Source of the DNA: an uncultured Bacilli bacterium
GTDB lineage: Bacteria > Bacillota_I > Bacilli_A > RF39 > UBA660
Direction of reading: 5' to 3'
NCBI GenBank assembly: GCA_944332725.1
Contig: CALVKO010000001.1
Coordinates: 719 to 64,718, forward strand
DNA: 64,000 nucleotides
Made by a program: the position numbers and the translations under genes. Positions 730-51,806 of this stretch are shown piece by piece (position 1 is the first letter of the stretch; the number at the start of each line of letters is the position of its first letter). Under the pieces are notes generated by a model. That model made no database searches. It saw only the letters and a list, made by a program, of their open reading frames with translations, and was not told the origin of the DNA.

Positions 730-752
730 AAAAGACTTGAATAGTCTTTTTA
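728..752. terminator. Bidirectional rho-independent terminator shared by convergent genes.
   Basis: AAAAAGACT-TGAAT-AGTCTTTTT hairpin with A/T runs on both sides. It overlaps the stop codons of both flanking genes. Confidence 0.6.
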
Positions 753-7189: not shown

Positions 7190-7265
7190 AAAAATGCACA
7201 ATATTTTCAAAATACTGCGCATTTTTATGTTTTTGAAGTTCCATTTTGCACAATCATTGTGCATT
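7190..7265. promoter_or_regulatory. Operator/promoter module, copy 1, upstream of the helicase gene. It contains a perfect palindrome TGCACAATCATTGTGCA and an imperfect palindrome TGCACAATATTTTCAAAATACTGCGCA.
   Basis: Inverted repeats are visible directly. A ~40-bp block plus a ~20-bp block are repeated almost identically at 8390-8460. Confidence 0.5.
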
Positions 7266-7267
7266 TT

Positions 7268-8350
7268 TTAATTTTTTCCAACAAAAACGTCATATATTTC
7301 TTTATATCGATATCCTAACTTAGCATGAGTTGAATCACTTACTATAATACCTAAATTAATTAATTGATCAATTAAAATGGATATTGTATTTCTTGATACT
7401 CCTGTTTCTTCTTCGATTTCCTTTTTTGTAAATACAATTTGATGCATCATAGCAGGCATTATTCGATAAACAGCATTACTATTTAAAGTCTTAATTTTCT
7501 CCATATCTTTTTTATAGATTTTGTTAATCATATTTATTTTAGCAATATAATTATTACATTGTTCAATTATACATTGTAAGAAAAATTTTATAAAACCAAC
7601 AATATTACCTTTTCTACTTTCATTTAAAAATTTATGATAGCTAGGTTTATATAATTCTAAAACTTCTGACAAGAAAAGAATAGGCTCATCTTCAGTTAAT
7701 TTAGCTAATTGAATAGATATCAAAGCACGACCTAATCTTCCATTTCCATCTCGATATGCATGAATAGTTTCAAATTGATAATGTGATATTGCAAGATTAA
7801 TAAAAATAGGATCTATAAAATTATTATTCATGTATTTAAACAAATTATTAAGTAGAATTGGAACATCTTCTGGAATTGGCGGTACAAAAATTGCTTCATT
7901 GATACTACAACCTGTTGGTCCAATCCAATTTTGAATAGTTCTTATCTTGCCTGGTTCTTTTTCATTTCCTCTTACACTATCTAATAAAATTTTATGGATA
8001 GCATTAACAAAATGAATATTTATATCGTTATTTTCAACTAAATAATCTTTTGCATACTCTATAACTTTTTTTAAATTTTGTATTTCCAAATTATCATCTG
8101 TTTTAGGCATGTACTTTAAATAATACATTTCATCTTGTGAAATTTGTGTCCCTTCTATTTGTGTAGATTTTAAACTTTCACTTAATATAATAGAATCTAA
8201 AAAATATTTTGAATCAAATTCAACATTTCTTAAATATGACTTATATTCACCGTATTTATAATTTGCTTCAGCTATTAAATTTAAAAGTTCTTTATCTATA
8301 TTATATTCGATTGGTAATTCTTTAACTTTCATTGGATTCATCTTTATCAC
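7268..8350 (-). CDS. Fic family protein (Fido domain, probable AMPylase) with a C-terminal winged HTH.
   Basis: Canonical Fic motif HAYRDGNGRLGRAL (HxFx(D/E)GNGR). Confidence 0.85.
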   Translation of the reverse strand: MIKMNPMKVKELPIEYNIDKELLNLIAEANYKYGEYKSYLRNVEFDSKYFLDSIILSESLKSTQIEGTQISQDEMYYLKYMPKTDDNLEIQNLKKVIEYAKDYLVENNDINIHFVNAIHKILLDSVRGNEKEPGKIRTIQNWIGPTGCSINEAIFVPPIPEDVPILLNNLFKYMNNNFIDPIFINLAISHYQFETIHAYRDGNGRLGRALISIQLAKLTEDEPILFLSEVLELYKPSYHKFLNESRKGNIVGFIKFFLQCIIEQCNNYIAKINMINKIYKKDMEKIKTLNSNAVYRIMPAMMHQIVFTKKEIEEETGVSRNTISILIDQLINLGIIVSDSTHAKLGYRYKEIYDVFVGKN

Positions 8351-8389: not shown

Positions 8390-8460
8390 CAAAAATGCAC
8401 AATATTTTTAAAATACTGCACATTTTTTATACTCTACTTTGCACAATCATTATACATTCT
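8390..8460. promoter_or_regulatory. Operator/promoter module, copy 2, upstream of the Fic gene. It is a direct repeat of 7190-7265.
   Basis: AAAAATGCACAATATTTTTAAAATACTGCACATTTTTTAT...TTTGCACAATCATTATACATT matches copy 1 at roughly 37 of 39 positions in the first block. A -35/-10 pair (TTTACA-17-TATTAT) and an AGGTGA RBS follow. Confidence 0.5.
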
Positions 8461-8977
8461 TAAAATAAATGTTATTTTCTTTTTCATATCCTAAATTAGT
8501 TATTTCACCATGCCCCGGATATAATGTTATATCATTTGGATATTTTTTTATTTTATTAATTGACTTAAACATGTCAAATTCATCACTATTATCTAAGTCA
8601 ACTCTTCCTATTGAATCTTTAAATATAAAATCACCAACAAACATTATTTTTTCTTTTTCAAAATAAATTGTTATACAAGTATTATCATGGCCTTTAGTAT
8701 GAATAACTTTAAACTTAAAATTATTTATACTATATTCATTTTCATCTAATTTATAATCGTAGACTTTTATATTGTATTTTTTTATTAATTCATTTAAAGC
8801 ACCAATATGATCAAAATGATAATGAGTAATAATAATTCCAACTGGTTTTAAATTACCAATTTTATTTATTATTTTATCTATTTCATCACCCGGATCAATT
8901 ATTAAACACTCATTTTCAATACTTACAATATAACAATTTGTTTCTAAATATCCCACTTTAACTTTATCTATTTTCAT
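8450..8977 (-). CDS. MBL-fold metallo-hydrolase.
   Basis: THYHFDHIG (HxHxDH) zinc-binding motif. Size is ~175 aa. Confidence 0.8.
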   Translation of the reverse strand: MKIDKVKVGYLETNCYIVSIENECLIIDPGDEIDKIINKIGNLKPVGIIITHYHFDHIGALNELIKKYNIKVYDYKLDENEYSINNFKFKVIHTKGHDNTCITIYFEKEKIMFVGDFIFKDSIGRVDLDNSDEFDMFKSINKIKKYPNDITLYPGHGEITNLGYEKENNIYFKNV

Positions 8978-10938: not shown

Positions 10939-11092
10939 CTTTTTTATTATATCACCTAAAAATGTTTTTTTATATGTAAAAAAGTTATTTTTTTAAAATT
11001 TGCTATTACACGAAAAATTTTTTTGTGTAGATAATTGATATGATATAAGTAATTATGATATTGCAATTAATGTTGATACATTGAACGTAGAA

Positions 11093-11120
11093 AAAAACTT
11101 ACATTAATTGTAAGTTTTTC
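11093..11120 (-). terminator. Rho-independent terminator hairpin downstream of the DUF1016 pseudogene. It is nearly identical to the hairpin at 12861-12896.
   Basis: AAAAACTTACA-TTAAT-TGTAAGTTTTT. Confidence 0.5.
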
Positions 11121-11150
11121 ACTTTTTTTATTATATAATAAAGCATTACT

Positions 11151-20800: not shown

Positions 20801-21598
20801 AGTGGTTAAAGCAGCACAAGGTAAAACTCTACCCATTGCTGAATTTACTGGTTTCCAGTTTACATACCCTAAAAATCCTAATTCATAACTTGTTCCAAGA
20901 TACATTTTGCCATCAAAAGTCAACATCGTAATAGGCTCAACAGTAATCCACAAATTATTAAACAAAGCATCATCAGAATTAGAAGATGGATTAACAGATT
21001 CAGCAATATTTTTTAAATCATCTGCAGATAATCCAAATAATGTTGAATACAAACTAACGATTCTTGAATCATTTATATCCAATTTATCCGTATCAGCCCA
21101 TTCCCATATTCTATCCAAATCCCAATTTTCAATATATGATTGTAATGAAACATTAAAAGGTGAAAATAAACTACTTAAACTTTCGGCAGTATAAATATAA
21201 CCCTTAAAACTTTCCCATGGATTGCCATCACCAGATTTAGTTAATTTATTATAAACATTACACCCAGATGTTCCCATTATATATTGAACTTTACTACATC
21301 CTGTCCCTAATACAACATAATTATCACTACTGCCTAATATATTATAATGTTCGTTATATGCTATTATATTAGACGAATGACCAACTTGGGTACCATCTGT
21401 TTTTAATAATGTAACTCTCATACCCCTAATATATTTTGGACCATCTGAAGTTGCAAAATTTGTCCAATAATTATACTTATCAGTATTACTACCAGAACCT
21501 GAAGGCAAACTCGTAATATCCGTTGCAGCATTAATCTTTACATAACATACTGCTATACTAATCGCTAAAATTAATAAAACAAAATACTTTTTTTTCAT
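17813..21598 (-). CDS. Large (1261 aa) secreted Cys-rich protein of unknown function with a low-complexity DPDNPN repeat.
   Basis: N-terminal signal peptide MKKKYFVLLILAISIAVCYVKINA. Roughly 50 cysteines. Imperfect tandem repeats encode PEDDPDNPNDPDNPDNPNDPNNPN (nt ~18290-18360). The single frame is uninterrupted; internal small ORFs on other frames are spurious. Confidence 0.7.
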   Translation of the reverse strand: MKKKYFVLLILAISIAVCYVKINAATDITSLPSGSGSNTDKYNYWTNFATSDGPKYIRGMRVTLLKTDGTQVGHSSNIIAYNEHYNILGSSDNYVVLGTGCSKVQYIMGTSGCNVYNKLTKSGDGNPWESFKGYIYTAESLSSLFSPFNVSLQSYIENWDLDRIWEWADTDKLDINDSRIVSLYSTLFGLSADDLKNIAESVNPSSNSDDALFNNLWITVEPITMLTFDGKMYLGTSYELGFLGYVNWKPVNSAMGRVLPCAALTTGDIITRYKNVPGASSTSYFNGNLNIVDLSESASYSGGVSLQNVCAKTSGGKSSDILAEQYVTGNKGAGIGLVYFKDTVKLSLTCEEVNSGISNYSSFMSKLESTYRRSGLNGIYALPEVANGIKYTVNGKTNVADKVWYINECTCYGVYDAYKNSNNIELYNLVKNQIKSVFVQKQSFFVSFVESVKEQVNKISETNPSSVGVVTQWDYIKYENLNCGFATATCESVDFNKLDEESTLGYYGCYSKCRSQEGWGNTWRFYNCLYNCTSDNEQTNEKNKIIRSCQKLPLYPSTSFTDEYLDKNKELYKQCFELYNSQFGTNWTISSYQSAGCITQDEKVDIKKKYNCTPSYNVGTCINQENVFYTDTSQELNEEDYWKYCVFSDENAMYTINEHKWSDKNQPLTYYDENITSDYCEVYCIENLTGAFNSNTIKVKAGQHFVWNGHSVSGSRTCKTKSIEWNKFTTDLKNKNNEIEKAFNTYLVARDQQASVKQYTVKNGCSECVSWYPTHPCADGKGTCGGGCRRHRYWDETCIKWDSATYGSGATYAHGSAGSACSCSGYPSDDRFGRDSKYQTWDNMKDDAKYIYDQMKKCYNEDNGATWISSMSTADGEGSSWDQWLYIVEPSAIVKYNYTINGSTGLYSVNEEMDKKIEYTEKVNKNDCQTVSGGIEVLTSCNTSTNKCTRQMLGIKKCTKVEMTKGANIDFNIPAGIYEYINKDDNISFNASQLETLKSQYISQGKTFNYIYLGYSNFPVEYKTPDGIYGQEYGNGELSITYSNLGYKVPNKSTAVDSILDAIDKEKYGNWQCQFEVFSELIPEDDPDNPNDPDNPDNPNDPNNPNKGDINLIYRPIDLYDPFPDIDASGRETGSNWCYGLGDRTNCSNTNPVVDEFILNNRDVEGHEIYSEEPMYTFILTPSIIKEIRNYNDENSYAEYYGSYSGKTYDFKCNTGTGKTCISDYLSYLIDITGAKNQPGVCVDDRYRSYNDPNNFDNCRY

Positions 21599-27276: not shown

Positions 27277-27993
27277 TTAAAATTCTTCTTTTTTTCTAAA
27301 TTTCAAAACAATAACTACAGTAACAATTACAGCAACTACTGCAACACCAACACCAATTAATAACATATTGTTGTTTTTTTCTTCAACTACTGTTTTTTCA
27401 TTTTCAAAATCAAAACTAAATTTTATTTCACCATCATCTGGTGTTACAAGATTCCAAGTCAAAGTTTTTTTATCCTCAGATATACTAGTTGCATTGCTAC
27501 TATTAGGTACAACTGGTAATGTTACAATAAATTTAGTATCATTTTCGAAATCATCCCTTATATTTATACCTGAATATTTAAAATTAGCTATATAGGTATT
27601 TTCTTCTTTTTTAAATATTTTAAAATCTAATATACTATATGTATCGGCAATTTCAAAATTAGCATCATCACCCGTTACATTTTCTATATTATCTATTTTT
27701 GTAATAAACTTAAATCCTTTGTAATCTCCTTCTTCATATCTTTCATAAGTATAGTATGATTCAAGCTCTGAAATTCCCAATTCTTCTTCTAAAGCTTTCC
27801 ACCTTTCATCATCAGAATAAGTTTTATCAGTATTATTTTTTTCATTTAAAAATGCATCAATAAATTCATTATCATAAGATACTAACATCGAGATATCAAT
27901 TGATTTATCATCATTAATAACAAAATTAAAATTTTGCTTAGTACCACACCCAGTTACTAATAAGACTAATAAAATTACTAATATTTTTTTCAT
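27277..27993 (-). CDS. Lipoprotein with a C-terminal TM anchor (unknown function).
   Basis: Lipobox LLVTGC after a signal peptide. The C-terminus has the hydrophobic stretch LLIGVGVAVVAVIVTVVIVL followed by KFRKK. Confidence 0.6.
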   Translation of the reverse strand: MKKILVILLVLLVTGCGTKQNFNFVINDDKSIDISMLVSYDNEFIDAFLNEKNNTDKTYSDDERWKALEEELGISELESYYTYERYEEGDYKGFKFITKIDNIENVTGDDANFEIADTYSILDFKIFKKEENTYIANFKYSGINIRDDFENDTKFIVTLPVVPNSSNATSISEDKKTLTWNLVTPDDGEIKFSFDFENEKTVVEEKNNNMLLIGVGVAVVAVIVTVVIVLKFRKKEEF

Positions 27994-29642
27994 AAATCTC
28001 TTCCCTTCTTAAATCTATTAATTATTTTATTTACAAATTTATCACCAAATACTACATTAAATAAATTATTTTTGTATGATAAATAAAAATATATTATTGC
28101 TCCGATACTAGCATATATAACAATTTCAACAAATGACCATAATCTCGTTGTTGGAAAACTTCCCAAAAATAACCTTATTATCATTAAAGATAACATCATT
28201 ATCCCATTTATTAATATAATTTTTATACTTGGCTCTAAACTACTTTTATAACTTAAACTATATATTTTTCTTAATTTATATAATAAATAGATAACTGCTA
28301 ATAATTGAACAACCATTGTAGTTAATATAGTTCCATAATATGCTTCAAAGCCAATAAACTTCACAAAATACATAGATGGAATATTTAATATTGCTTTTAA
28401 AATAAAACTACCTAATAATGTGCCTAACGCTAACTTAGGATTATTTAATGCATTAGTCGTATCGACTAAAATATAGAAAAACGAGTTAATTATAGTTTGT
28501 AAAATAAAGAAACTAAATACTTTTACACTTAAACTATCATAACCATAAAATATTGTCCAAACACTACTAGATAAAAAACATAATCCTAAAGTCATCGGTA
28601 AAGAAATAAATAAAATCATTTTTAATGTTTGATTTATTTTTAACGATACATCATTATAATTTTTCAATGTTGCACTTCTTACAATATTAGGTATTATACT
28701 AACTGTTAAACCAAAAGTAACCGCTAAAATAATCATATTTAATTTAGATCCCCAAGTAGTTACAATACTTAAAACATTTTCTGCTGTATTAATATCATAT
28801 CCTAATGGAACTAATCCTCTTACAATTGTAAATACATCAACTGTATTATATACTGATCTTATTAATTCAATTAAGATAAATGGTAAAGAATATAAAACTA
28901 TTCTCTTAAAAATTATTTTATTAGTTAATTTTCTTTCTTCTTTTTTTGGTAATTCATCTCTTTTTAATATTTCTCTATTTTTATTTATTTTATTGATTAC
29001 ATATAGATACGCTGTTAAAGCACCTGCTGTTGCTCCAAAGGTTGCAACACCAACTGTTGTAGCAATTGATAAATGAAATACTTTTAAAGTTAAATAGCTA
29101 CCACCTACAATCACTATTACTCTTACTAACTGTTCAATTACATTTGCTATAGCAGGAACAACCATCATTCTATGTCCTTGAACATAACCCTTGCTTACGC
29201 TTAAAATAGGTATAAATAATAAAGCAGTTGATATAACTCTAATTACAAACGTTATATCTTCTATACTATTACCGCCTTCGATATCTCCTATTATTAAATA
29301 AGATATTTGTGGTGCGAAAACAAATAAAATGATAAAACTTATTAATCCTAAAATAACTATTAAATATTTGCCTATTTTGTATGCTCTTTCCTGTGCATCA
29401 TAGTAACCTAAAGTGTTATATTCACTAACAGTTTTAGCCATCGCACTAGGTATTCCCGTTGATGATAATGATGCGAAAACTGAATAAATTGTATAAGCAT
29501 AACTATATAAAATAGCACCCTGTGTTCCTATTATTGCTCTAAAAGGAATAACATAAATTATACCTAATACTTTACATAAAACTATTCCAATAGTTGATAT
29601 TAATGCTCCTTCAACAAAGCTGTTTTTTTTCAATATAATCAC
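27990..29642 (-). CDS. MOP-superfamily flippase / polysaccharide biosynthesis protein.
   Basis: About 14 TM helices and an N-terminal region typical of Wzx/MurJ/SpoVB-type exporters. It overlaps the upstream Fic gene and the downstream lipoprotein gene by 4 nt each. Confidence 0.7.
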   Translation of the reverse strand: MIILKKNSFVEGALISTIGIVLCKVLGIIYVIPFRAIIGTQGAILYSYAYTIYSVFASLSSTGIPSAMAKTVSEYNTLGYYDAQERAYKIGKYLIVILGLISFIILFVFAPQISYLIIGDIEGGNSIEDITFVIRVISTALLFIPILSVSKGYVQGHRMMVVPAIANVIEQLVRVIVIVGGSYLTLKVFHLSIATTVGVATFGATAGALTAYLYVINKINKNREILKRDELPKKEERKLTNKIIFKRIVLYSLPFILIELIRSVYNTVDVFTIVRGLVPLGYDINTAENVLSIVTTWGSKLNMIILAVTFGLTVSIIPNIVRSATLKNYNDVSLKINQTLKMILFISLPMTLGLCFLSSSVWTIFYGYDSLSVKVFSFFILQTIINSFFYILVDTTNALNNPKLALGTLLGSFILKAILNIPSMYFVKFIGFEAYYGTILTTMVVQLLAVIYLLYKLRKIYSLSYKSSLEPSIKIILINGIMMLSLMIIRLFLGSFPTTRLWSFVEIVIYASIGAIIYFYLSYKNNLFNVVFGDKFVNKIINRFKKGRDL

Positions 29643-30604
29643 TTCCTTATGTTCCAGTAACCACCATTATCTGAACCGATTCTTTCTATAAAATTATTAT
29701 CGATTAATTTTTTTAAATTGTACTTAACTCCATCTGGTGTAATATTTAGTTTTTTAGCTAATTCATTTCTAGTAATACTAGGATTTTCATTTATATACTC
29801 TAATATTTTAATTTGATTTTTATTTAATTTCTGGGTAGTTTTCTGGGTAGTTTTTTCTAATGAAGAATTAATAATTTTCAACATAAAACTAATAAATATA
29901 TTAGCATTTCCATTAATATGACATTGAGCAATAGAATTATAATATTCTTCTTGATTTATATAAATTTCTTCTTCGATTGGAATATATTTAAAATTTTTAT
30001 TCCAATCAGTTAAAATTAAAGTTATCCAAAACCTTGCTAATCTTCCATTTCCATCACTAAATGGATGAATAGTTATAAAATAATAATGAAAAATAGAAGC
30101 AAGTATAATTGGATGAAGATCATTACCATTGATATATTCAAATAAACTTTCCATAAGAGATGGTACAACTAAAGAATTTGGTGCCATATAAATTATTTCA
30201 TCATCTTTCTTTGTTCCTTCACCGTGATTCCGATAGTAACCATTGTCATCATCAAAATATCTCATAAGCACTGTGTGTGCTTTTAAAAAATCTTCTTCAC
30301 TTTTCCAATTATAATCATCAATATGCTCATATAATTCATTAGCATTTTTTACTTCTTGAATTTCTTTTCTACTTCCTAATACTAATTTGTTTTCGATAAT
30401 ATTTTCAATTGAATTTAATGATAAGGTATTTTCTTCAATTGCAAGTGAAGAATAAATAGACCTTACCCTAGACTTAATTTGTAAATTTTTTTTTATACTA
30501 TTTTCTATTTTTATTAAAGATAAATTTTTTTCAATGTTTTTGATAATATTTTTATTATCTTCACTTATATAAAATATTGGATTTATTTTATCAAAATCTT
30601 TCAC
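29639..30604 (-). CDS. Fic family protein with a C-terminal wHTH.
   Basis: Fic motif HPFSDGNGRLARF. GTG start. Contains a 12-bp tandem duplication encoding KTTQKTTQK. Confidence 0.85.
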   Translation of the reverse strand: MKDFDKINPIFYISEDNKNIIKNIEKNLSLIKIENSIKKNLQIKSRVRSIYSSLAIEENTLSLNSIENIIENKLVLGSRKEIQEVKNANELYEHIDDYNWKSEEDFLKAHTVLMRYFDDDNGYYRNHGEGTKKDDEIIYMAPNSLVVPSLMESLFEYINGNDLHPIILASIFHYYFITIHPFSDGNGRLARFWITLILTDWNKNFKYIPIEEEIYINQEEYYNSIAQCHINGNANIFISFMLKIINSSLEKTTQKTTQKLNKNQIKILEYINENPSITRNELAKKLNITPDGVKYNLKKLIDNNFIERIGSDNGGYWNIRK

Positions 30605-30830: not shown

Positions 30831-31454
30831 TCATTTTAATGATTTCCTTATTTCTTTATAATTTTTACAATATTTATTAACTAAATTCCAAAAATCTTTC
30901 GAATGATCAAAATGAATAAAATGACTTAATTCATGAATAATTACATAATCAATTTGCTCATATCCATATTTAATTAATTCACTATTTAAAGTAATACTAT
31001 TATTTTTATTACAAACACCCCATCTAGTTTTCATTTTTCTTATTTTTAACTTAGGATAAGGAATATTTTCTTCAAACAAATTATATATATAATCTAATCT
31101 TTCTTTAAATATTATTTCAGTATTCTTCTTTAACCATTTATTTAAATAATCTTCACTTTTAACAAATATTTTATTATCGTTTATTTCAATATCACAATAA
31201 TTAACAAATATAATGTCATACTCTTTATTTAAATAATAAAACTTATTACTTCTTTCTAATCTTTGATTATTCTTTTCAATCATTTTTTTTATAACATCAT
31301 AATTTTTATCTAATAAATTTTTAATATAACTTTTACTTACAAAATAATTAGTTGTTATATATATTTTATTATCTCTTATTCTAATATAAGTATTTTTATT
31401 ATTCTTTTTTTCTATTATCACTTCATATTCAATATCATTAACTACATATTTCAT
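30831..31454 (-). CDS. M48/YgjP-family zinc metallopeptidase (DUF45).
   Basis: HELSH zinc-binding motif near the C-terminus. Size is ~200 aa. Confidence 0.75.
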   Translation of the reverse strand: MKYVVNDIEYEVIIEKKNNKNTYIRIRDNKIYITTNYFVSKSYIKNLLDKNYDVIKKMIEKNNQRLERSNKFYYLNKEYDIIFVNYCDIEINDNKIFVKSEDYLNKWLKKNTEIIFKERLDYIYNLFEENIPYPKLKIRKMKTRWGVCNKNNSITLNSELIKYGYEQIDYVIIHELSHFIHFDHSKDFWNLVNKYCKNYKEIRKSLK

Positions 31455-33810: not shown

Positions 33811-35840
33811 TCTTTTATTTCCTCTTTATTATTCTTCATATCTAATGTTGCTTCATTAATAGCATCATCAACTGTTTTAATTGCATCATTTATCATACTA
33901 TAACCGATAGCAGCACCAAATCCATGTTTTAAATCTTTTAATTCTTTACCTAATTTACGCATATAAGTAATTACTTGCTTTTCTTCATAACCAATTAAAT
34001 AAATTAAAAATTCATTGCCATTTGTTCTTATTATTTCACTATGTTCTATTTGATTAACAATCAATATATTAGCGGCTTGTCTAATTACGTCATCGCCTTC
34101 AGCATGGCCATAATTATCATTAATATATGCAACATTATTTAAGTCGACGATAATTATTGTTTGTGGATATGTATCACTATTATCCCATCTTTCAATTGAA
34201 TCGTTTAAATATGTTCTATTTTTTAATGAAGTTAAAGCATCAATATATCTAATTTTATCTTCTTTTGATAAAGTTTTAATTTTTTTCTTTGGTTTGATTT
34301 TTATTATAGCCAAAACTACTAACAATATACCAACTACAGTACCTAAAATTACCGCAATATTTTTTAAAATAATTGGTGTTTTATTAACTAACAACAATTC
34401 ACTTAAGCCATTAGTAATAAATGTTTTAGTATCATTAAATCTAATGTAAAAATCAAAAAATTCATTAAATATTTTATTATCAGAAATATCACGACTAATG
34501 AATGAATTATTAGTTGTGTCATATTGATAAGCAATAATAAAATCTTTTAATTTACTAGCATAATAGTTATAATTATATGTATCTAAAACAATTATACTAT
34601 TATCATCAATATTATTAATTAAATCTTCCATATTAGCATATGCAGTAACTGTAATATTATTATTTACTAAGTTTTCAGTTAAATAAGTATTTTCAATAGC
34701 TACTACATTATCTAATGATTTAATAGAATTAATAATTTTATTATTTGAAGAATGTTTTAAAACAATAACTGAATTTTCATAAACTGGTACCGTTTTATAA
34801 ACATCTAAATTATATTCTGTTGTTCCATTAATTCCATAAAATAAATCAATTTGATTAGAATTAAATGCTTCTAATAAACTAGTCATATTATTATATTTTT
34901 TATAACTTATTTCAGCATTAGTTAATTTAGAAAAACTAGACAATAATTGATAATTTATTCCTGCTAATTTATTATCTAATAAAGTATCAAAAGGAGCATT
35001 TTCAACAAATCCATAAACATATCTTTTACTTCTAAATTTAACTGTTTCTTCATCATTGATATTTTTAAAATTTAAATAATTTTTAGATAAATATTTATTA
35101 TATAATTCTTCATAATTATTACTAGCCCATTTTTTATAATATTTTATTAAAATAGTATTTAATTTTTCTGTTTCTCCTAAATCTAAAACATAATATTTTT
35201 TATAATCACTAATGTTATAAGCAATTTTATAATTATTATCGATTAATTGTTTTAAATTAGTTGTTTTAAGTAAGACTATTGCATCTAATTCAGTTTCATC
35301 ATCATTAAAATCATTTATTAAATCTGTTTCTGTTTCAAATGTTTTATATGTAACATCGGCTTTATATAAATAATTATTAATATTATTTAAATTTTCATTT
35401 AAAACACCTATTGTTAAACCAGATAATTCTTCAATAGTTAAAAATGTTTCTTTTTTAGTTACTAAAGCATAGTTATCTTCATAAATTAAAATATTATTAT
35501 CAAGAACATTATCAACTAATTTAAAAGCATAATCTGATTTTACTTCATCACCTAATTTATAAGATATTTTATTAAAAGATAAACCCGTTTCTTTATTTAA
35601 TGAGTTTAAAAAATCAACGATTATTCCTTCACCATTATAACTTAGCACAGGTATTCCATCAATTATTGACATATCAATAACATTATTTTTATTATTTTCT
35701 ATCCATTGCTTTTCAAATAAATTTAAAGTTGTTATCTTATCTTCTTTAGTTAAAAAATTATATATTAAAAATCCAATTATTAAAACTAAAACAACAATAA
35801 TACTAATTATAATTACTTTTTTATTCTTCATCAGTCTCAC
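33807..35840 (-). CDS. Membrane protein with a large extracytoplasmic domain and a C-terminal GGDEF domain whose signature is degenerate (NGNEF).
   Basis: DALTSLKNRTYL precedes the RTNGNEF site and the domain ends ...HAEGDD. There is one TM at the N-terminus and one before the GGDEF domain. Confidence 0.7.
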   Translation of the reverse strand: MRLMKNKKVIIISIIVVLVLIIGFLIYNFLTKEDKITTLNLFEKQWIENNKNNVIDMSIIDGIPVLSYNGEGIIVDFLNSLNKETGLSFNKISYKLGDEVKSDYAFKLVDNVLDNNILIYEDNYALVTKKETFLTIEELSGLTIGVLNENLNNINNYLYKADVTYKTFETETDLINDFNDDETELDAIVLLKTTNLKQLIDNNYKIAYNISDYKKYYVLDLGETEKLNTILIKYYKKWASNNYEELYNKYLSKNYLNFKNINDEETVKFRSKRYVYGFVENAPFDTLLDNKLAGINYQLLSSFSKLTNAEISYKKYNNMTSLLEAFNSNQIDLFYGINGTTEYNLDVYKTVPVYENSVIVLKHSSNNKIINSIKSLDNVVAIENTYLTENLVNNNITVTAYANMEDLINNIDDNSIIVLDTYNYNYYASKLKDFIIAYQYDTTNNSFISRDISDNKIFNEFFDFYIRFNDTKTFITNGLSELLLVNKTPIILKNIAVILGTVVGILLVVLAIIKIKPKKKIKTLSKEDKIRYIDALTSLKNRTYLNDSIERWDNSDTYPQTIIIVDLNNVAYINDNYGHAEGDDVIRQAANILIVNQIEHSEIIRTNGNEFLIYLIGYEEKQVITYMRKLGKELKDLKHGFGAAIGYSMINDAIKTVDDAINEATLDMKNNKEEIKD

Positions 35841-36282
35841 CTACATTGTTAGTCCAACTAAATGCTTCAGCATTTTTAGAATGATATCCAATTGATGGAT
35901 AAGATGTATTATTTTCATTAGTTAAATATATTTCAATATCATAAAAACTAACAATTTTTGTACTTAATGTATCTAAAATAATATCACTTAGTGCTTGAAC
36001 TTTTTCTAGTTTTGCTGAATCTTTAACTTTAATAAAAAATTTCATAGTCGTTACATTTGTATTATAATCTATCTCTTCAACTAAATCGGAATCCATTATT
36101 TTATTTTTTATTTGTTCAATTACAGCATTATCTATTTCTGGAGCATTCTCTAATCTATCACCATAAACACTTCCATTACTTGGATAAAACATTCGATAAA
36201 CTGCCACTCCCATTAATATTACTAAAACTAAACAAATTATAGCAACAATAACAATTGTCTTATTTTTCTTAATAAATTTCAT
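35821..36282 (-). CDS. Hypothetical membrane-anchored protein (153 aa).
   Basis: N-terminal TM. It overlaps the GGDEF gene by 20 nt, which suggests an operon. Confidence 0.5.
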   Translation of the reverse strand: MKFIKKNKTIVIVAIICLVLVILMGVAVYRMFYPSNGSVYGDRLENAPEIDNAVIEQIKNKIMDSDLVEEIDYNTNVTTMKFFIKVKDSAKLEKVQALSDIILDTLSTKIVSFYDIEIYLTNENNTSYPSIGYHSKNAEAFSWTNNVGETDEE

Positions 36283-36349
36283 ATCTTCACTCCTAACAAT
36301 AACATTATACTATAAATATATGATTTAATCAATATTAAAATAATTAATA

Positions 36350-36377
36350 AAAAATCCTAACAACTAGGATTTTTCAA
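36350..36377. repeat. Direct repeat copy A (about 28-30 bp) containing the stop and terminator hairpin. It is identical to 37453-37482.
   Basis: AAAAATCCTAACAACTAGGATTTTTCAA. The TAG stop of the DUF1016 gene lies inside the hairpin at the same position as the gatB TAG in copy B. Confidence 0.7.
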
Positions 36378-37398
36378 TTAAATTTAAATTTTTCTTTTCT
36401 TCTTCAATAATTTCAATTAATTGTTCTTCGGTAGGAAAATTTAATCTATATTGTGATGCAAAAATAGTTTTATTATCTTTTGGTAAAGTATATTTTACAA
36501 CTGTTTTATTTTTATCAGTTGATAATAAAATACCAATAGTTGAATTTTCATCATCTTCCTTAATTACTCGATCATAATAATTAACGTATAATTGCATTTG
36601 TCCAATATCTTGCGGAGTTATTTTAGCAGTTTTTAAATCTATTATCACAAAACATTTCATAATTCTATTATAAAATACTAAATCCGGATAAAAATGATCT
36701 TCTTCGATTGTTATTCTAACTTGAGAACCAACAAACATAAAACCACGACCTAATTCAAGTAAAAACTCTTTTAAATGTTTTAAAATGTTTTTTTCTAAAT
36801 CCGACTCTAAATAAATTGTATTTTCTTTAATGTCTAAAAATTCTAATATAAAAGGATCTTTGACCAAATCTTCTAATTTATTTATAATATGTCCTTTATT
36901 AGCCAGCTCCAAAACTTTTTCTTTATCCTTTGACAATTTTAAACGTTCATATAATAAAGAGCATATTTGCCTTTGTAATTCTCTTACACTCCACATAGAA
37001 TTAATTGCTTCATGCAAATAAAAATTTCTTTTATCATTATCATTTATTTTTAATATTTCTAAATAATGAGACCAACTTAATTTGGAAGACACTGTTGTCC
37101 AAATTGGATATGTTAAATAAAATTTTCTCATTGTTCTTAAATTTCTAGATGAAAAACCTTTCCCAAATTCTTTAGTTAATTTTAATGACAATTTTTCTAA
37201 AACTGCTTCACCATAAGTTGCCCGTTCATCACCTTTTTGAATAGTCATTATAATTTTACCGATATTCCAATAAAGATTTAACATTTCTGTATTAACGGTT
37301 GTATATAATTTCTTACGACTATTAATTACTAAGCTTTTTATTTCATTAAACGTTAATTCAAATACTTGATTATCTATTTCTTGTAACATTTTAATCAC
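36364..37398 (-). CDS. YhcG/DUF1016 family PD-(D/E)xK nuclease, intact.
   Basis: N-terminal YhcG_N-like region (LYWNIGK, KLSWSHY) and a C-terminal nuclease core (ELGRGFMFVGSQ, IDLK). It is a paralog of 47327-48382. Confidence 0.8.
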   Translation of the reverse strand: MIKMLQEIDNQVFELTFNEIKSLVINSRKKLYTTVNTEMLNLYWNIGKIIMTIQKGDERATYGEAVLEKLSLKLTKEFGKGFSSRNLRTMRKFYLTYPIWTTVSSKLSWSHYLEILKINDNDKRNFYLHEAINSMWSVRELQRQICSLLYERLKLSKDKEKVLELANKGHIINKLEDLVKDPFILEFLDIKENTIYLESDLEKNILKHLKEFLLELGRGFMFVGSQVRITIEEDHFYPDLVFYNRIMKCFVIIDLKTAKITPQDIGQMQLYVNYYDRVIKEDDENSTIGILLSTDKNKTVVKYTLPKDNKTIFASQYRLNFPTEEQLIEIIEEEKKNLNLIEKS

Positions 37399-37452
37399 CT
37401 TATATTAAGCATTATACTAAACTTATAATTAATTGTCAATTATAAATTAACA

Positions 37453-37482
37453 AAAAAATCCTAACAACTAGGATTTTTTCAA
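37453..37482. repeat. Direct repeat copy B, the native gatB stop plus terminator hairpin.
   Basis: AAAAAATCCTAACAACTAGGATTTTTTCAA. The gatB TAG stop lies within the stem. Confidence 0.7.
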
Positions 37483-38862
37483 AACATCAATCAATAATTG
37501 ATTAGCTAAACTAGGATTAACTTTTCCTTTACTTTCCTTCATTACTTGACCCATTAAATATTTAATTGCTCGATCTTTTCCTTCTTTAAAATCTTTAACA
37601 GAATCGGGATTAGAACTAACTACTTTATTAATAATTTCAATAACAAAATTATCATCACTTATTTGTTCCATATTATTTTCTTTAATAATTAAATCAACAT
37701 CTTTATCACTTTCTAAGATTATATTAATAATTTCTTTACCTTGTTTACTAGATATACTTTTAATATCTAATTTATTTACTAATTTAATAAAATTTTCTTG
37801 ATTTAATTTAGTATCTTCTATTTTAATAATATTTTTATTTAAATAAGATAATACGTCACCAGTTAATAAATTACTAGCAATAATAGGATTACATTTATCG
37901 ATTACTGATTCTAAGAAATTACAAATATTTTTGTTAGAAATAATTGTTTTAATATTATTATTATTTATGCCTAAAGAAATATATTTATTTTTAAGTTCAT
38001 CAGTTAAAATAGGCATTGAATCACTTATTTCTTTTAACCATTCATCATCAATATAAACATAAGGAATATCTGGTTCTGGAAAATATCTATAATCATTACC
38101 AGTTTCTTTATAACGCATTAAAATAGTAGTTTTAGTCTTATCATCGAATCTTCTTGTTTGTTCTACTATTTTTTCACCTTTTTTAATTAATTCTTCTTGC
38201 CTTTTAACTTCATAATCGATAGCAAGTCCAACAGCAGATATCGAACCGATATTTTTTACTTCACATTTTGTGCCTAATGTATCACTATCACTTACAGATA
38301 CATTAACGTCACATCGCATACTTCCTTCTTCCATTTTAACGTCACTTATACCTAAATATAATAATGTTTCTCTTAATTTTTCTAGATATTCCATTGCTTC
38401 TTGGCCACTATTTATACAAGGTTTAGTAACTATTTCAATTAAAGGGACTCCTGCTCTATTAAAATTTAATAAAGTATCAGTTGTATGAATACTTTTACAA
38501 GTATCTTCTTCTATATGCATTCTTTCTAAATATATTTTTTTATTAGATATAGGAATATAACCATCATAACCAATTGGTGTATCTTGCTGGGTAATTTGAT
38601 AACCTTTTGGTAAATCAGGATAAAAATAGTTTTTACGATCAAAATGCATTAATCTATTTATTTTACAATTAAATGCTAGGCAAGCCTTTAAAGCAAAATC
38701 AATAATTCCTTTATTTAATCTTGGAAGTACACCAGGATAACCCAAATCTATTACATTAATATTTGTATTAACTTCATCATTAAAATTATTTTTACTTAAG
38801 GAAAAAGCTTTAGCCATTGTTTTTAATTCTACATGGACTTCAATTCCAATTGTTGGTTTCAT
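37468..38862 (-). CDS. gatB: Asp-tRNA(Asn)/Glu-tRNA(Gln) amidotransferase subunit B.
   Basis: N-terminus IGIEVHVEL and the conserved GatB/YqeY C-terminal domain. It sits in the gatC-gatA-gatB order. Confidence 0.95.
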   Translation of the reverse strand: MKPTIGIEVHVELKTMAKAFSLSKNNFNDEVNTNINVIDLGYPGVLPRLNKGIIDFALKACLAFNCKINRLMHFDRKNYFYPDLPKGYQITQQDTPIGYDGYIPISNKKIYLERMHIEEDTCKSIHTTDTLLNFNRAGVPLIEIVTKPCINSGQEAMEYLEKLRETLLYLGISDVKMEEGSMRCDVNVSVSDSDTLGTKCEVKNIGSISAVGLAIDYEVKRQEELIKKGEKIVEQTRRFDDKTKTTILMRYKETGNDYRYFPEPDIPYVYIDDEWLKEISDSMPILTDELKNKYISLGINNNNIKTIISNKNICNFLESVIDKCNPIIASNLLTGDVLSYLNKNIIKIEDTKLNQENFIKLVNKLDIKSISSKQGKEIINIILESDKDVDLIIKENNMEQISDDNFVIEIINKVVSSNPDSVKDFKEGKDRAIKYLMGQVMKESKGKVNPSLANQLLIDVLKKS

Positions 38863-40286
38863 TATACTTCCTCCTTTAATTTATTTTCAATAAAATACGC
38901 TAATTGATAAATTTTATCTTCTTCAAAATAATTTCCGATAATATGCATACCAACTGGCAAATTGTTTTTATAACCAACTGGCAAACTTAATGCAGGAAGC
39001 CCCGCCATATTAACAGGTATAGTTAATAAATCATCATAAAAACTTTTTAATGCATCATCTTGTTTAGTTCCCAATTTATAAGCAACATCAGTATTAGTTG
39101 GTCCAATAATCAAATCATATTTACTTAAGATATTTTTAAAACTATCAGTCATTTCTTTTCTTAATTTCAATGCTTTATAATAATATGTATCAGCATTTTC
39201 ACCACTTAAAATATAAGAACCAATCATTATTCTTCTTTTTACTTCATTACCAAAACCAATAGTTCGAGTATTTTTATATAATTCATCAATATTTTTAAAA
39301 TTGTCAATTTTTAATCCATATCTAATACCATCATACCTAGCCAAATTACTACTTGCTTCACCTAAAGCAATAACTTGATATAAAGGTATAGCATATTCTA
39401 AATAATCAATATCTACATAATCAACTTGACAACCTTTTTCTTTCAATAAATTGATTATATTAGTTACTTTTTCTCGAACTATTTTATCAATTACTTCACT
39501 CATATAATAGTTAGGAACAGCAATTTTTAAATTATTTACATCTTGTCCCATTAAAGAAGTATAATCTTTAACTTCATTTAAAGAAGAAGTTAAATCATTT
39601 TTATCATAACCACTTATAACATTCAATAATAAAGCATTTTCATAGACATTTCTTGTAATTGGTCCCACTTGGTCTAGACTTGAAGCAAATGCAATAACAC
39701 CATATCTTGAAACTCTACCATATGTTGGTTTTAACCCGACTAAACCGCAAAAACTAGATGGTTGTCTAATAGATCCACCTGTATCAGTTCCTAAAGAAAA
39801 TGGCGTAATACCAGCAGCAACACAAGAAGCAGAACCAGAAGAAGAACCACCTGGAACTAAAGTTTTATCGATAGGATTTAAAGTATTACCAAAATAACTA
39901 GTTTCACCAGTAGACCCCATAGCAAATTCATCCATATTAGTTTTACCGATAATAATCATATTTTTTTCTTTTATTTTTTTAATAACTGTAGCATCATAAA
40001 TTGGAATAAAATCTTCTAAAATATGACTAGCAGCAGTTGTTCTTAAATCTTTAGTTACAATATTATCTTTAATAGCAATTGGTAATCCAAATAAAATATT
40101 ATCTACTTCTTTTTCTTCTAATTCTTTAGCCTTTTTAATAGCCTCTTCTTTATTTAAAGTTATAAAACAATTTAAATTAGTTTCATCTATTCTAGCAAAT
40201 GCTTCATTAACTAAATCAATTGGCTTTATTTCTTTATTTTTTAATTTTTCATTTATTGTTTTTATATCTAAATCTAAGTATCTCAT
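38862..40286 (-). CDS. gatA: Glutamyl-tRNA(Gln) amidotransferase subunit A (amidase signature).
   Basis: Amidase signature GGSSSGSA. Length is 474 aa. Confidence 0.95.
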   Translation of the reverse strand: MRYLDLDIKTINEKLKNKEIKPIDLVNEAFARIDETNLNCFITLNKEEAIKKAKELEEKEVDNILFGLPIAIKDNIVTKDLRTTAASHILEDFIPIYDATVIKKIKEKNMIIIGKTNMDEFAMGSTGETSYFGNTLNPIDKTLVPGGSSSGSASCVAAGITPFSLGTDTGGSIRQPSSFCGLVGLKPTYGRVSRYGVIAFASSLDQVGPITRNVYENALLLNVISGYDKNDLTSSLNEVKDYTSLMGQDVNNLKIAVPNYYMSEVIDKIVREKVTNIINLLKEKGCQVDYVDIDYLEYAIPLYQVIALGEASSNLARYDGIRYGLKIDNFKNIDELYKNTRTIGFGNEVKRRIMIGSYILSGENADTYYYKALKLRKEMTDSFKNILSKYDLIIGPTNTDVAYKLGTKQDDALKSFYDDLLTIPVNMAGLPALSLPVGYKNNLPVGMHIIGNYFEEDKIYQLAYFIENKLKEEV

Positions 40287-47326: not shown

Positions 47327-48382
47327 CTATAAAAAATCATTTTCTAATCTTTTTTCGATATCTTCAATACTAGGTAATGTATTTTCTAGAAATTCTGGTA
47401 TTTCTGATAAAATTTTATATTCACTCACACCAATTGGTTTATTAATATCTTTTAGTGCTAATTCAGCAGTTACTTTCTTTTTGTCTTTACATAACAAAAT
47501 ACCAAAAGTAGGATTATCTTTTTCATCTTTAATATACTTATCTACAGCACTTAAATAAAAATTAAGTTTTCCTGCATATTCTGGTTTAAATTCAGTTGTT
47601 TTTAGTTCAATTACAACATAACTTCTAACCTTTAAATTATAAAATAATAAATCAATATAATAATCTTCATTATCTATCTCTAAATGATATTGTCTACCTA
47701 TGAATGCAAAGCCATTACCTAATTCTAATAATAATTTGGTAATATTGGATATTAATTGTCGCTCAATATCTAATTCTTTTAAATCTTTATTATTTATTAT
47801 AAAATCAAATATATAAGGATCTTTTAATAAATATGCAACTTGTTCATTATTTGGACTTGGTAGCGTATTATCAAAATTTGTAGTTTTATTCTCTAATAAT
47901 GCTTGTCTTTCATATAATTTACTTGCTATTTGATGGATTATTATAGGTCTAGACCAACCATTTTTAACAGTTTCTTCAATATACCAATTTCTAATATTTT
48001 TTTCTTTTACTTGATCCATTATCGTTGTAATAGATGACCAAGGAATTTTTGCAACATAATGTTGCAAAAATTCATCATTGTCAAATTCAGTTGCAAATTT
48101 TTGCATATACCTTAAATTCCTAGCAGACATTCCTTTAATATTAGGAAATTCTATTTTTAAATCTTTTGCTAAAGTATCTATAAATGATAATCCCCATTTA
48201 TTATTCTCTATTAATTTTAAACCAATTTTATAATACATTAATATCAAATCTTTATTAGCATTGTCAATTATTTTATTTCTTGTAGTTATTAAAGTATTTT
48301 TTATATCATTTAAAACTTCAAAATATTGATTATTATTTTCTAGCATTATTACACTTCCTTTTAAATATTTTTTAAAACTCAT
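47327..48382 (-). CDS. YhcG/DUF1016 family PD-(D/E)xK nuclease, intact (third paralog).
   Basis: ELGNGFAFIGRQ and VVIELK motifs. The N-terminal region is homologous to the other copies. Confidence 0.8.
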   Translation of the reverse strand: MSFKKYLKGSVIMLENNNQYFEVLNDIKNTLITTRNKIIDNANKDLILMYYKIGLKLIENNKWGLSFIDTLAKDLKIEFPNIKGMSARNLRYMQKFATEFDNDEFLQHYVAKIPWSSITTIMDQVKEKNIRNWYIEETVKNGWSRPIIIHQIASKLYERQALLENKTTNFDNTLPSPNNEQVAYLLKDPYIFDFIINNKDLKELDIERQLISNITKLLLELGNGFAFIGRQYHLEIDNEDYYIDLLFYNLKVRSYVVIELKTTEFKPEYAGKLNFYLSAVDKYIKDEKDNPTFGILLCKDKKKVTAELALKDINKPIGVSEYKILSEIPEFLENTLPSIEDIEKRLENDFL

Positions 48383-51173: not shown

Positions 51174-51806
51174 TTAAATAGAATCAATACAATTATTTAC
51201 AATCCATTCCTTTAATTTATTCATATTATTTGTTTCATAATAATCGATTAACAAAGTAAAATATTCGCCTATTTTTTCAACTGGAACTGATATAATACCT
51301 TGACCATTTTTTATCATTTCCTTATTTGCAACTAAGTTTGCTACTCTTTTATTACCATCTAAAAACATTTGACTTCTTTGAATCCAACAAAATAAATTTA
51401 TACATCTATCTAATTTATTAGTAATGTTTAATATTTCTTTTAATTCTTGTTCATAATTACATTCACTAGGTAGTTTAGGAAGCCAAGAAGTACCTGTTAT
51501 ACCTACAACTTTTGTTCTAAAATCACCTAAAGGATAAATATTTTGTCCTTTACATATTTCAAAATGAATTTTTTTAATATAATCAATTGTCAAATCTTCA
51601 TCTATGGTATTAAATACATATTCCCAAGCATCTTTTAAGCCCTTTAATTTAAGCATATCATCTATTGAAATTTTCCCTGTATTAACATTATTCATAAATG
51701 AATAGGTATCTGCAAATGTTACTGCTATCCCTTCTAAATTTGCACTTTTATAGATGTTATCTACTAATTTTCTTTTTGCAAAAAATATATTATCTTCTTT
51801 AGTCAT
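51174..51806 (-). CDS. Fido (Fic/Doc-like) domain protein with a non-canonical motif.
   Basis: QMFLDGNKRVANL aligns to the Fic/Doc core FxDGNKR, but the conserved His is replaced by Gln. The gene start overlaps the metG stop by 8 nt. Confidence 0.55.
   Translation of the reverse strand: MTKEDNIFFAKRKLVDNIYKSANLEGIAVTFADTYSFMNNVNTGKISIDDMLKLKGLKDAWEYVFNTIDEDLTIDYIKKIHFEICKGQNIYPLGDFRTKVVGITGTSWLPKLPSECNYEQELKEILNITNKLDRCINLFCWIQRSQMFLDGNKRVANLVANKEMIKNGQGIISVPVEKIGEYFTLLIDYYETNNMNKLKEWIVNNCIDSI

Follow-up and report, generated by a model that had tools for sequence, protein, structure and literature searches.

How a solitary nuclease gene enters a chromosome between two resident genes, and what brings it there, is the question raised by a DUF1016 (YhcG) gene lying directly behind gatB in a 64-kb stretch of DNA from an uncultured Bacilli bacterium (contig CALVKO010000001.1; the whole stretch is called the window). 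The nearest named relative is Candidatus Faecisoma merdavium (Mycoplasmatota incertae sedis). In this window the gene is enclosed by two copies of the hairpin that closes gatB, and in related genomes lacking the gene the hairpin occurs once. With a probability of about 0.9, the segment is a cargo cassette with a true duplication of its target, and the DUF1016 nuclease is best seen as the cargo of the insertion, not as its agent.

The duplicated gatB hairpin and the cassette between its copies

The genes around the gatB/DUF1016 locus are all encoded on the minus strand. A repeat search of the window revealed a perfect 26-nt direct repeat (AAAAAATCCTAACAACTAGGATTTTT) at positions 36349-36374 and 37453-37478, with a spacing of 1104. 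This confirmed the two copies reported in the preliminary description and shortened their perfect part from 30 to 26 nt; about 30 nt is reached only with a one-base slip in the A/T-run, after which the match continues through the next CAA (TTG on the coding strand). Allowing up to three mismatches, the repeat had two copies in the 64 kb vs none expected from 100 shuffles, and matches to a looser stem pattern, AAATCCTA-N2-7-TAGGATTT, were restricted within the window to the two copies of the gatB locus. Each copy folds into a stem of 10-12 bp with a 5-nt loop, followed by 6-7 U, with RNA folding energies of -11.1 and -11.6 kcal/mol (z = -3.9 and -3.3). Both copies thus combine a stable predicted stem-loop with a U-run at a gene end, and the gatB hairpin is predicted to be an intrinsic terminator, weak and rich in A/T as is typical of DNA with 22-25% GC. 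A simple terminator scan missed it because the scan demands three G-C pairs.

The gatB stop codon (TAG, 37468-37470) and the DUF1016 stop codon (TAG, 36364-36366) are located at the same offset inside the two copies, as had been noticed before, so that the terminal KKS codons and stop of gatB and the terminal EKS codons and stop of the DUF1016 gene are encoded by duplicated DNA. Across 191 fetched loci (ca. 1.6 Mb), the hairpin motif was confined to the gatB locus, where it was present once if the site was empty and twice if it was filled. This removed the concern that the repeat might be a common genome-wide terminator, and chance was likewise ruled out by the two copies against none expected. 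An assembly artefact was ruled out by identical junctions in independent ENA and Logan assemblies.

Apart from the DUF1016 frame, no second open reading frame (ORF) was found in the 1,078 bp between the copies (Table 1), and DUF1016_N and YhcG_C were their sole Pfam domains, with no transposase. The GC content of the cassette (22-25%) is like that of its flanks, with no compositional difference. Its promoter was the only 12/12 match to the sigma-70 consensus in the scanned 30-45 kb stretch. Assignment of the gene to the DUF1016 family was confirmed by Pfam (DUF1016_N, PF17761, 7.9e-48, 162.5 bits against a cut-off of 32.8; YhcG_C, PF06250, 2.5e-55, 187.1 bits against a cut-off of 32.5), with the correction that translation likely starts at the ATG at 37389, giving 341 aa, and not at the GTG at 37398. 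The protein also matched the PADLOC profile PDLC04807 of PDC-S02 (E = 6.3e-136, residues 5-336), and the PD...(D/E)xK motif is legible in its translation (FYPDLVF, VIIDLKT). Together with a dN/dS of about 0.08 between the two clades of filled alleles described below, these features indicate that the gene is functional, old and under purifying selection, with a predicted nuclease activity, and make its product a candidate single-gene anti-phage defence (PDC-S02). The protein itself is an ordinary member of a known family. DUF1016 proteins are predicted nucleases known as cargo of integrative and conjugative elements (ICEs) and Rickettsiales amplified genetic elements (RAGEs) (PMC4316617), and their genes are often neighbours of restriction-modification and BREX loci (PMC9881135). 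No description of DUF1016 as a mobile agent was found in the literature. Regarding a donor, the cassette leader showed no DNA homology in 80 genome loci and had 0 matches in viral contigs, where the protein relatives were just 52-57% identical.

Empty, filled and doubly filled alleles in related genomes

To establish the state of the site before insertion, we compared gatB loci of relatives, in which KKS-ending alleles encode proteins 93.5-98.9% identical to the GatB of the window. Six contigs (L097-L102; GatB 93.5-94.6% identical), representing two KKS alleles (L097-L100 and L101/L102), contained the empty site predicted in the preliminary description: gatB ending in KKS, a single hairpin, the native intergenic region with its promoter, and a gene for a 153-aa protein. 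The earlier proposal of a ca. 1.1-kb single-gene cassette inserted at the gatB terminator hairpin with duplication of its target was upheld by these sites. In the window, the DNA to the right of the distal hairpin (ATTAATTATTTTAATATTGATTAAATC...) matches that next to the only hairpin of the empty sites. The single copy there indicates that the hairpin is native and that the duplication is target-derived. The cassette was absent from L097-L102 and from L007-L013, in all of which the 153-aa gene directly follows gatB, and present in L001, L002 and L103-L111. The gatB 3′ ends of more distant relatives lack this hairpin: those of L007-L013 (85-86% aa identity) end in SKY, that of L016 (87%) in KKK, and those of L014 and L003 (92-93%), followed by other downstream genes, in KRM. 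Since most gatB relatives end in ELKKK or ELKKL, the A-run arm of the hairpin represents ancestral Lys-Lys coding, which points to a hairpin that evolved in place and again to a repeat derived from the target. As a separate observation on the KRM allele, a unit of ca. 386 nt follows gatB, in tandem in L003 (6400-7200) and single in L014 (5400-5650); it carries a promoter and a structured leader upstream of an FtsX-type ABC permease gene, and in L003 also an antisense 28-codon ORF (MEIKTIERFINAINCSICYDCILYNSSP).

The filled allele was found in two clades, A (the window, L001 and L002) and B (L103-L111), whose gatB DNA is ca. 90% identical between clades, and it also occurs in metagenome sets such as SRR14630141, SRR26926522 and ERZ24773253; the locus is represented in SRR14630122 and ERZ28614569 as well. 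Clade B, in which gatB is 94-98% identical, contains filled alleles intermingled with empty and KRM-type ones. The DUF1016 protein cluster has 55 members, and all 15 that were read end in LIEKS, indicating the same 3′ junction. In addition, 41 nt of the cassette promoter region (GTTAATTTATAATTGACAATTAATTATAAGTTTAGTATAAT) are identical between the clades. Synonymous divergence (dS) between clades A and B was 0.36 for the DUF1016 cassette, in comparison with 0.47-0.50 for gatA, 0.49-0.54 for gatB, 0.64-0.69 for the GGDEF gene and 0.87-0.91 for the 153-aa gene. The cassette is thus somewhat younger than its flanks, with a gap to gatAB of about two standard errors in what is a rough estimate. No integrase-bearing element was present at the gatB 3′ end in the 20-odd contigs of the locus. 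Comparison of L001 (7870-8110) with the window (36780-37020) showed the GatB protein and the first 570 nt of the DUF1016 gene to be identical, followed by clear divergence; this pattern suggests mosaic recombination inside the gene.

Hairpin stems were conserved everywhere, although neutral 26-nt copies of the age of the cassette should differ at several positions. The loops vary by lineage. Both are GTTGT in the window and both AAATT in L103; the gatB-proximal and distal loops are AATTT and AAATT in the L104 group, and AT (a 2-nt spacer) and GTTGT in L002; the single hairpin of empty sites has AATTT or ATTATT. Loops that differ between lineages and yet tend to match within a genome indicate that the copies interact, by conversion or repeated recombination.

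A further arrangement was observed in L192, where gatB (KKS-ending) is followed by a first hairpin (H1), a 213-aa gene with its own terminator, a second hairpin (H2) and the DUF1016 cassette. In L110, where the 213-aa gene is represented at 1-477, the array goes on with a third hairpin (H3) and then the 153-aa gene. The 213-aa protein (L192, 652-1293) matched no Pfam or PADLOC family and had few homologues (12 matches). The right flank of H1 is native (TTTTTTTGAAATTATT...) and that of H2 is the DUF1016 leader (TTTTATTTTGTTAATTT...), so the array did not arise by simple insertion into a filled allele; these flanks point instead to a crossover between hairpins of differently filled alleles or to integration of one cassette at the hairpin of the other. 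Related strains thus have 0, 1 or 2 different cassettes bounded by the gatB hairpin, and it is firmly established that its copies recombine and that at least two different cassettes have used the site.

We also asked whether the duplication had covered the promoter of the 153-aa gene. Similarity between the cassette leader and the intergenic region ranked 2 among 44 upstream regions with the window sequences; with those of L104 it reached 24.5, above all 43 controls (maximum 21.5). The leader of the SoFic cassette described below ranked 2 in this comparison.

Flanking repeats at other cassettes

The same window contains a second cassette of this kind. A SoFic (Fic/DOC) gene, identified by Pfam (Fic and Fic_N) and PADLOC (SoFic, 4e-84), is located between a metallo-β-lactamase (MBL)-fold gene and a UvrD-like helicase gene, and is flanked by a repeat of 74-82 nt with 62 matching bases, the two versions of its 37-nt terminator hairpin having 95% identity. 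The cassette was absent in L112-L114, where the helicase gene directly follows the MBL-fold gene; in L112 (MBL and helicase proteins 86% and 89% identical), the duplicated block is present once. Like the DUF1016 cassette, the SoFic cassette starts right after a T-run, has its own promoter, and has its stop codon at the start of the duplicated block. The same architecture is thus firmly established for unrelated cargo, and, as SoFic encodes no nuclease, no DUF1016 gene is required in cis.

To determine how general these repeats are, we examined 80 DUF1016 loci, one genome per species, from gut Bacilli, Mollicutes-like and "Clostridia" metagenome-assembled genomes, with DUF1016 proteins 61-79% identical. 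An exact-match scan of all loci for hairpin-containing repeats proved too strict (6 close pairs), and a Smith-Waterman comparison of the 300 nt upstream with the 250 nt downstream of each gene was used instead (null maximum 16). Significant flanking repeats were detected at ca. 11 of 67 DUF1016 loci. When all 989 genes of the fetched DNA were scored, 12/92 DUF1016 genes and 6/897 others reached 19 or more (odds ratio 22, p = 2.5e-9, uncorrected for related loci), the six including SoFic and a RhuM-type gene. The duplicated terminators that were to be sought at other DUF1016 loci, as proposed earlier, were thus present at some of them, such as L021 and L074, but ca. 87% of the tested genes, including the second copy of the window (47327-48382), lack a flanking repeat.

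The repeats differed widely. In L021, a 27-nt repeat corresponds to the terminator hairpin of a class II aminoacyl-tRNA synthetase gene, and in L074 a 22-nt repeat corresponds to a histidine-kinase terminator hairpin that overlaps the DUF1016 stop. The 41-nt block of L030 includes a -10 box and also overlaps the DUF1016 stop. Longer blocks flank the gene in L046/L038, L025, L020, L044, L078 and L093. In L081/L082, comEC 3′ ends of 190-589 nt, 75-84% identical, form arrays (L081: 4820-5009, 6734-6923 and 8288-8389; L082: 2184-2770 and 4399-4985); these copies separate successive accessory genes, namely two DUF1016 paralogues and DinD/Bro-like genes, in what looks like an accretion array at the comEC end. 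With observed lengths of 22, 26, 27, 41, 74-82, 104-204 and 589 nt, there is no fixed length of target-site duplication. The repeats consist of the 3′ end or terminator of the local upstream gene and have no sequence in common between sites.

The cassettes themselves were equally heterogeneous. No conserved ends or terminal inverted repeats were found, since homology with the 80 other DUF1016 loci was confined to the ORF; leaders are unrelated (12, 57, 62 and ca. 190 nt) and 3′ ends also differ. One well-documented mobile lineage (L034, L036, L042, L045, L048 and L053) is 90-97% identical from ca. -162 to +55 in at least four contexts. For pairs of loci that are 90-97% identical across the gene alone, a mobile unit and gene conversion within the ORF give the same picture.

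Three side observations concern these loci. The DUF1016 gene of L025 is flanked by repeats that resemble the 3′ end of a PDDEXK_2 gene, and that of L030 adjoins a gene for a conjugative coupling protein. In L063, a 788-aa glycoside-hydrolase-like gene lies between two 34-nt copies of a terminator hairpin (ca. 3480-3510 and 6230-6260), which differ by compensatory stem changes (GTGTTATCA...TGGTAACAC vs GTGCTATCA...TGATAGCAC).

The window has 49 ORFs of 120 aa or more; a Pfam survey covered 38 of them, and homologous loci served to identify a further seven. A single candidate for a recombination-related nuclease emerged, a PDDEXK_2/Rpn-like gene (YhgA-like, 'transposase_31'; 56242-57114). The density of singletons of the defence-island type in the 64 kb is unusually high (Table 1). 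Flanking repeats of the other solitary accessory genes (DUF1016 copies, two Fic genes, PDDEXK_2, ORF6N and YgjP-like) were not above background. Elsewhere in the window, two pyruvate kinase paralogues are arranged in tandem (59583-60995 and 61063-62469), and a 1261-aa ORF with no Pfam family (17813-21598) contains 9-nt coding repeats (18279-18341).

Table 1. Positions of the two cassettes, their neighbours and the other accessory genes in the window
Feature	Position	Strand	Description
gatA	38862-40286	-	Upstream neighbour of gatB
gatB	37468..38862	-	464 aa, ends in VLKKS; Pfam GatB_N and GatB_Yqey; final 3 codons and stop inside the hairpin
gatB-proximal hairpin copy	37453..37478	-	Probable native gatB terminator, attL-like; 1-nt slip extends similarity to 37482
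Inserted segment	36375..37452	-	1,078 bp with promoter, ribosome-binding site and DUF1016 ORF without its own stop
Cassette promoter	37411..37439	-	TTGACA (37434-37439), 17 nt, TATAAT (37411-37416)
DUF1016/YhcG gene	36364..37389	-	341 aa from ATG; ribosome-binding site AAGGTGAT at 37394-37401; tail LIEKS and stop from duplicated gatB sequence
Distal hairpin copy	36349..36374	-	attR-like; gives DUF1016 stop and probable terminator; native intergenic region next
153-aa gene	35821..36282	-	Membrane-anchored product, no Pfam match; native downstream neighbour of gatB
GGDEF gene	next after 153-aa gene	-	Flanking gene
Upstream copy of SoFic target	8391..8464	-	Last MBL codons, small hairpin, strong terminator hairpin and T-run
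SoFic (Fic/DOC) gene	7268..8341	-	Own promoter TTTACA-17-TATTAT
Downstream copy of SoFic target	7190..7271	-	From SoFic stop codon to T-run before helicase promoter
Second full DUF1016/YhcG gene	47327-48382		351 aa; adjoins divergently transcribed polysaccharide-biosynthesis gene
Third DUF1016 copy, degraded	ca. 10940-11922		ORF with DUF1016_N (161 aa), then out-of-frame nuclease part (...IDLK...QMNMYVNYY...)
Fic gene	29639-30604		Fic and winged-helix; 4-nt overlap with next downstream gene (27990-29642)
Short Fic gene	51174-51806		Start overlaps metG stop by 8 nt, as if translationally coupled
ORF6N-domain gene	62525-63445		Solitary among core genes
YgjP-like metallopeptidase gene	30831-31454		Solitary among core genes
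HerA-like (DUF87) gene	750-2519		Solitary among core genes

Origin of the duplication and its relation to known systems

To explain these observations we favour an att-like mechanism of the Campbell type, to which we give slightly less than an even chance. The one-gene cassette, gained horizontally and with its own sigma-70-type promoter, lies immediately behind the U-run of the native gatB terminator, and its insertion duplicated 26-30 bp comprising the Lys-Lys A-run, the stem-loop and the T-run. As the terminator is duplicated, gatB has lost neither its stop codon nor its terminator, and the ORF that was inserted reads into the second copy, from which it takes its last codons, stop and terminator. 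In the favoured mechanism, the two hairpins would act like attL and attR of a non-autonomous element. We infer a circular intermediate: a single crossover would join the excised cassette, through the one hairpin that it carries, to the hairpin of the chromosome, the circle junction consisting of the cassette 3′ end, one hairpin and the cassette leader (...AAATTTAATTGAAAAATCCTA-loop-TAGGATTTTTTTGTTAATTTATAATTGACA), and further cassettes could be added at the same hairpin. Recombination would be exerted in trans, by a recombinase or by host short-homology recombination. We favour this mechanism because of the reuse of the site and its arrays, the same junctions in both clades even though the cassette is younger than its flanks, and the co-variation of the loops, and because of the long diverged repeats at other loci and the parallel of a cassette between 24-bp palindromes (PMC13617665). 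Long repeats of 75-84% identity fit a target copy borne by the element better than a staggered cut.

Several points weigh against this mechanism. With no sequence in common, the repeats cannot all be the substrate of one sequence-specific recombinase, and the first capture event at each distinct site is left unexplained. Homology of 26 bp is marginal for RecA. A tyrosine-recombinase exchange with unequal overlaps would leave one loop of each kind, so that identical loops need identical partners or conversion. Most DUF1016 loci lack a long flanking repeat, and none was found in the mobile group formed by L034 and its five relatives. The lineage of the gatB cassette was not found away from the gatB site, and the surveyed window ORFs include no integrase, resolvase or classical transposase.

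The strongest competing explanation is a single illegitimate insertion event without dedicated machinery, by a template switch or a staggered break at the hairpin; we regard it as plausible, although we would bet against it. A replication fork would stall or break at the hairpin, possibly on meeting RNA polymerase that had paused over the U-run; its nascent end would jump by microhomology to foreign DNA, copy a gene-sized piece and return to the chromosome upstream of the hairpin, which would thereby be duplicated; spread, loss and arrays would follow by homologous recombination and by deletion or conversion between the repeats. Such an origin is consistent with the unconserved cassette ends, the unrelated leaders and the variable repeat length among DUF1016 loci, with 5′ junctions placed exactly at the end of the T-run in the window cassette, SoFic, L021 and L074, with possible A/T-run microhomology at both junctions, and with the uniform composition and lack of a nearby recombinase among the surveyed ORFs; moreover, an origin event of this kind is needed at every new site anyway. 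It requires, however, two independent events at one hairpin (for the DUF1016 and 213-aa genes) or extra recombination steps, as well as gene conversion to account for the identical loops GTTGT in the window and AAATT in L103. That both clades have the same junctions, with a cassette that has diverged less than the flanking genes, also argues against it, and a staggered break would not easily yield repeats of 190-589 nt whose copies are only 75-84% identical.

A bolder proposal, which we consider unlikely, is that a previously undescribed structure-directed system of gut Mycoplasmatota and Bacilli inserts single-gene defence cassettes (DUF1016, SoFic, RhuM-type and genes of unknown function) at the terminator hairpins of housekeeping genes, duplicates the hairpin each time and builds hairpin-separated arrays, in the manner of an integron without a known integrase. 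In such a system a PD-(D/E)xK protein, either YhcG or the Rpn-like PDDEXK_2, might make a hairpin-specific cut.

The tyrosine integrases of ICEs, integrative and mobilizable elements (IMEs) and prophages characteristically produce direct repeats that consist of a housekeeping-gene 3′ end. The segment could accordingly be the relic of a larger element of this type whose integrase targeted the gatB 3′ end and in which internal deletions left only attL, cargo and attR, much as in the cis-mobilizable elements beside fda in Streptococcus thermophilus. The nature of the repeats, the accretion arrays at L192 and L081/L082, the coupling-protein neighbour in L030 and the presence of DUF1016 among ICE and RAGE cargo (PMC4316617) are in line with this origin. 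The cassette is nevertheless minimal, its promoter abutting the left repeat and its ORF entering the right one with no other element remnants; this minimal layout recurs at SoFic, L021, L074 and L030, which is not expected of repeated exact decay, and no integrase-bearing version was seen at gatB in the 20-odd contigs. Altogether, we consider a relic improbable.

The preliminary description had gone further and raised the possibility of an autonomous, hairpin-targeting selfish gene. YhcG would drive its own insertion by cutting the base of the hairpin or cruciform, through a staggered or homing-type break. The ca. 20-fold enrichment of flanking repeats at DUF1016 genes relative to neighbouring genes would suit such a role, as would the coincidence of the repeat boundaries with the palindrome base in the window and with complementary outer arms (AAAAATGCACAAT...ATTGTGCATTTTT) at SoFic, the intact active-site motifs under purifying selection, and the three DUF1016 copies of the genome, which could act in trans. 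The enrichment may, however, just reflect the recent arrival of DUF1016 genes in comparison with their core neighbours. SoFic and the 213-aa gene, the latter at the gatB hairpin itself in L192, share the architecture and encode no nuclease; the DUF1016 cassettes have no common ends, and their repeats, where present at all, range from 22 to 589 nt, several being non-hairpin and far too long for a stagger defined by structure. Unlike the target of a homing endonuclease, the gatB site was duplicated and not disrupted, with both copies intact, so the filled allele has no homing-like immunity. These results are difficult to reconcile with an autonomous YhcG element, and insertion driven by YhcG itself is very improbable, although the nuclease may have a role in trans. 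Finally, the proposal that the cassette carried the hairpins in as its own terminal repeats, with the single hairpin of 'empty' sites as an excision scar, was rejected: distant relatives do lack the hairpin at the gatB end (SKY-ending L007-L013, KRM-ending L014/L003 and KKK-ending L016) and the region after it resembles the gatB 3′ end of L007, but its A-run arm encodes the conserved Lys-Lys codons of gatB, the SoFic block contains the MBL coding 3′ end and is single in L112 (86-89% identical), and the repeats differ wholly between sites, matching the local upstream gene each time.

As regards its architecture, the insertion is a variant of known att-flanked non-autonomous cassettes, a group that comprises cis-mobilizable elements (CIMEs), palindrome-flanked toxin-antitoxin modules, integron cassettes and dif modules. 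The CIMEs found beside ICESt1/ICESt3 at fda in Streptococcus thermophilus are att-flanked, measure several kb and derive from ICEs with a known integrase. They share with the gatB cassette short direct repeats of a core-gene 3′ end, cargo that often consists of restriction or defence genes, the lack of their own integrase and tandem accretion; the direct repeats that are single in the empty site and the reuse of the site in the three-hairpin array of L192/L110 agree with this type. The gatB unit differs in being a single gene of 1.1 kb for which no cognate integrase or parent element was seen. In the literature, one true parallel to terminator duplication at a gene insertion was found, the ParE/RelE 26 toxin-antitoxin operon of Photorhabdus, which lies between two copies of a 24-bp palindrome where the empty site has one, an arrangement read as a hotspot of site-specific integration and excision (PMC13617665). 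There also, a small module without mobility genes lies between palindromes of ca. 24 bp, and a closely related genome has one palindrome and no cassette; its palindrome, however, resembles Tn3 res-I, pointing to a resolvase (PMC13617665). At gatB, the repeat is instead a housekeeping terminator with the last codons of its gene, the ORF is fused to it, and no res-like sequence or link to a recombinase was found.

Integron cassettes resemble the gatB unit in their compact single ORF, the hairpin at or after the stop, the hairpin-separated arrays and the defence cargo. Unlike the 26-nt gatB hairpin, an attC site has at least ca. 57 nt with R''/L''/L'/R' boxes and a GTT crossover triplet; the GTT of the window loop is missing from clade B and empty-site loops, the gatB cassette has its own promoter, its site is part of a housekeeping gene, and no Phage_integrase match that would indicate IntI/attI was present among the surveyed window ORFs. 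Xer dif/pdif modules likewise have single genes bounded by palindromes of 11-5-11 geometry and rely on a host enzyme in trans, but the hairpin shows no likeness to known dif arms beyond TCCTAG, the sites are locus-specific direct repeats, and L002 has a 2-nt spacer. An identity with attC or dif was rejected on size and on the lack of conserved boxes. Integration of CRISPR spacers or casposons by Cas1 also proceeds beside a palindromic repeat that is duplicated whole through staggered attacks at its borders; at gatB, what was inserted is a gene of 1.1 kb, Cas1 was not found, and repeat length varies by site. Phage morons share the unit of promoter, one gene and terminator between two resident genes, but duplication of a neighbouring terminator has not been described for them and the gatB cassette is chromosomal. 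With the DUF1016/YhcG proteins of defence islands (PDC-S02; companions of restriction-modification and BREX, PMC9881135), the gatB copy shares the family, both domains and intact motifs, but it is solitary, between gatB and a membrane-protein gene. What is unusual about the locus is the combination of a site made of the terminator and last codons of a housekeeping gene, a single-gene unit, an ORF completed by the duplicated target and the absence of any recombinase from the cassette and the surveyed ORFs.

Solitary defence genes between core genes are common in small genomes, and their arrival without integrases or transposases is largely unexplained. The gatB locus provides a clean case, with filled, empty and doubly filled alleles, exact junctions and a second, unrelated defence gene of the same layout within 64 kb, and the enrichment of flanking repeats extends over the DUF1016 family. 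If the duplicated terminators are recombination sites, housekeeping terminators would be landing pads for defence cassettes, at which an incoming ORF would obtain a stop codon and a terminator at once. If they instead result from template switches at hairpins, they would represent a way of gaining genes that can be recognised by its scar, which could be searched for genome-wide to date and count recent acquisitions.

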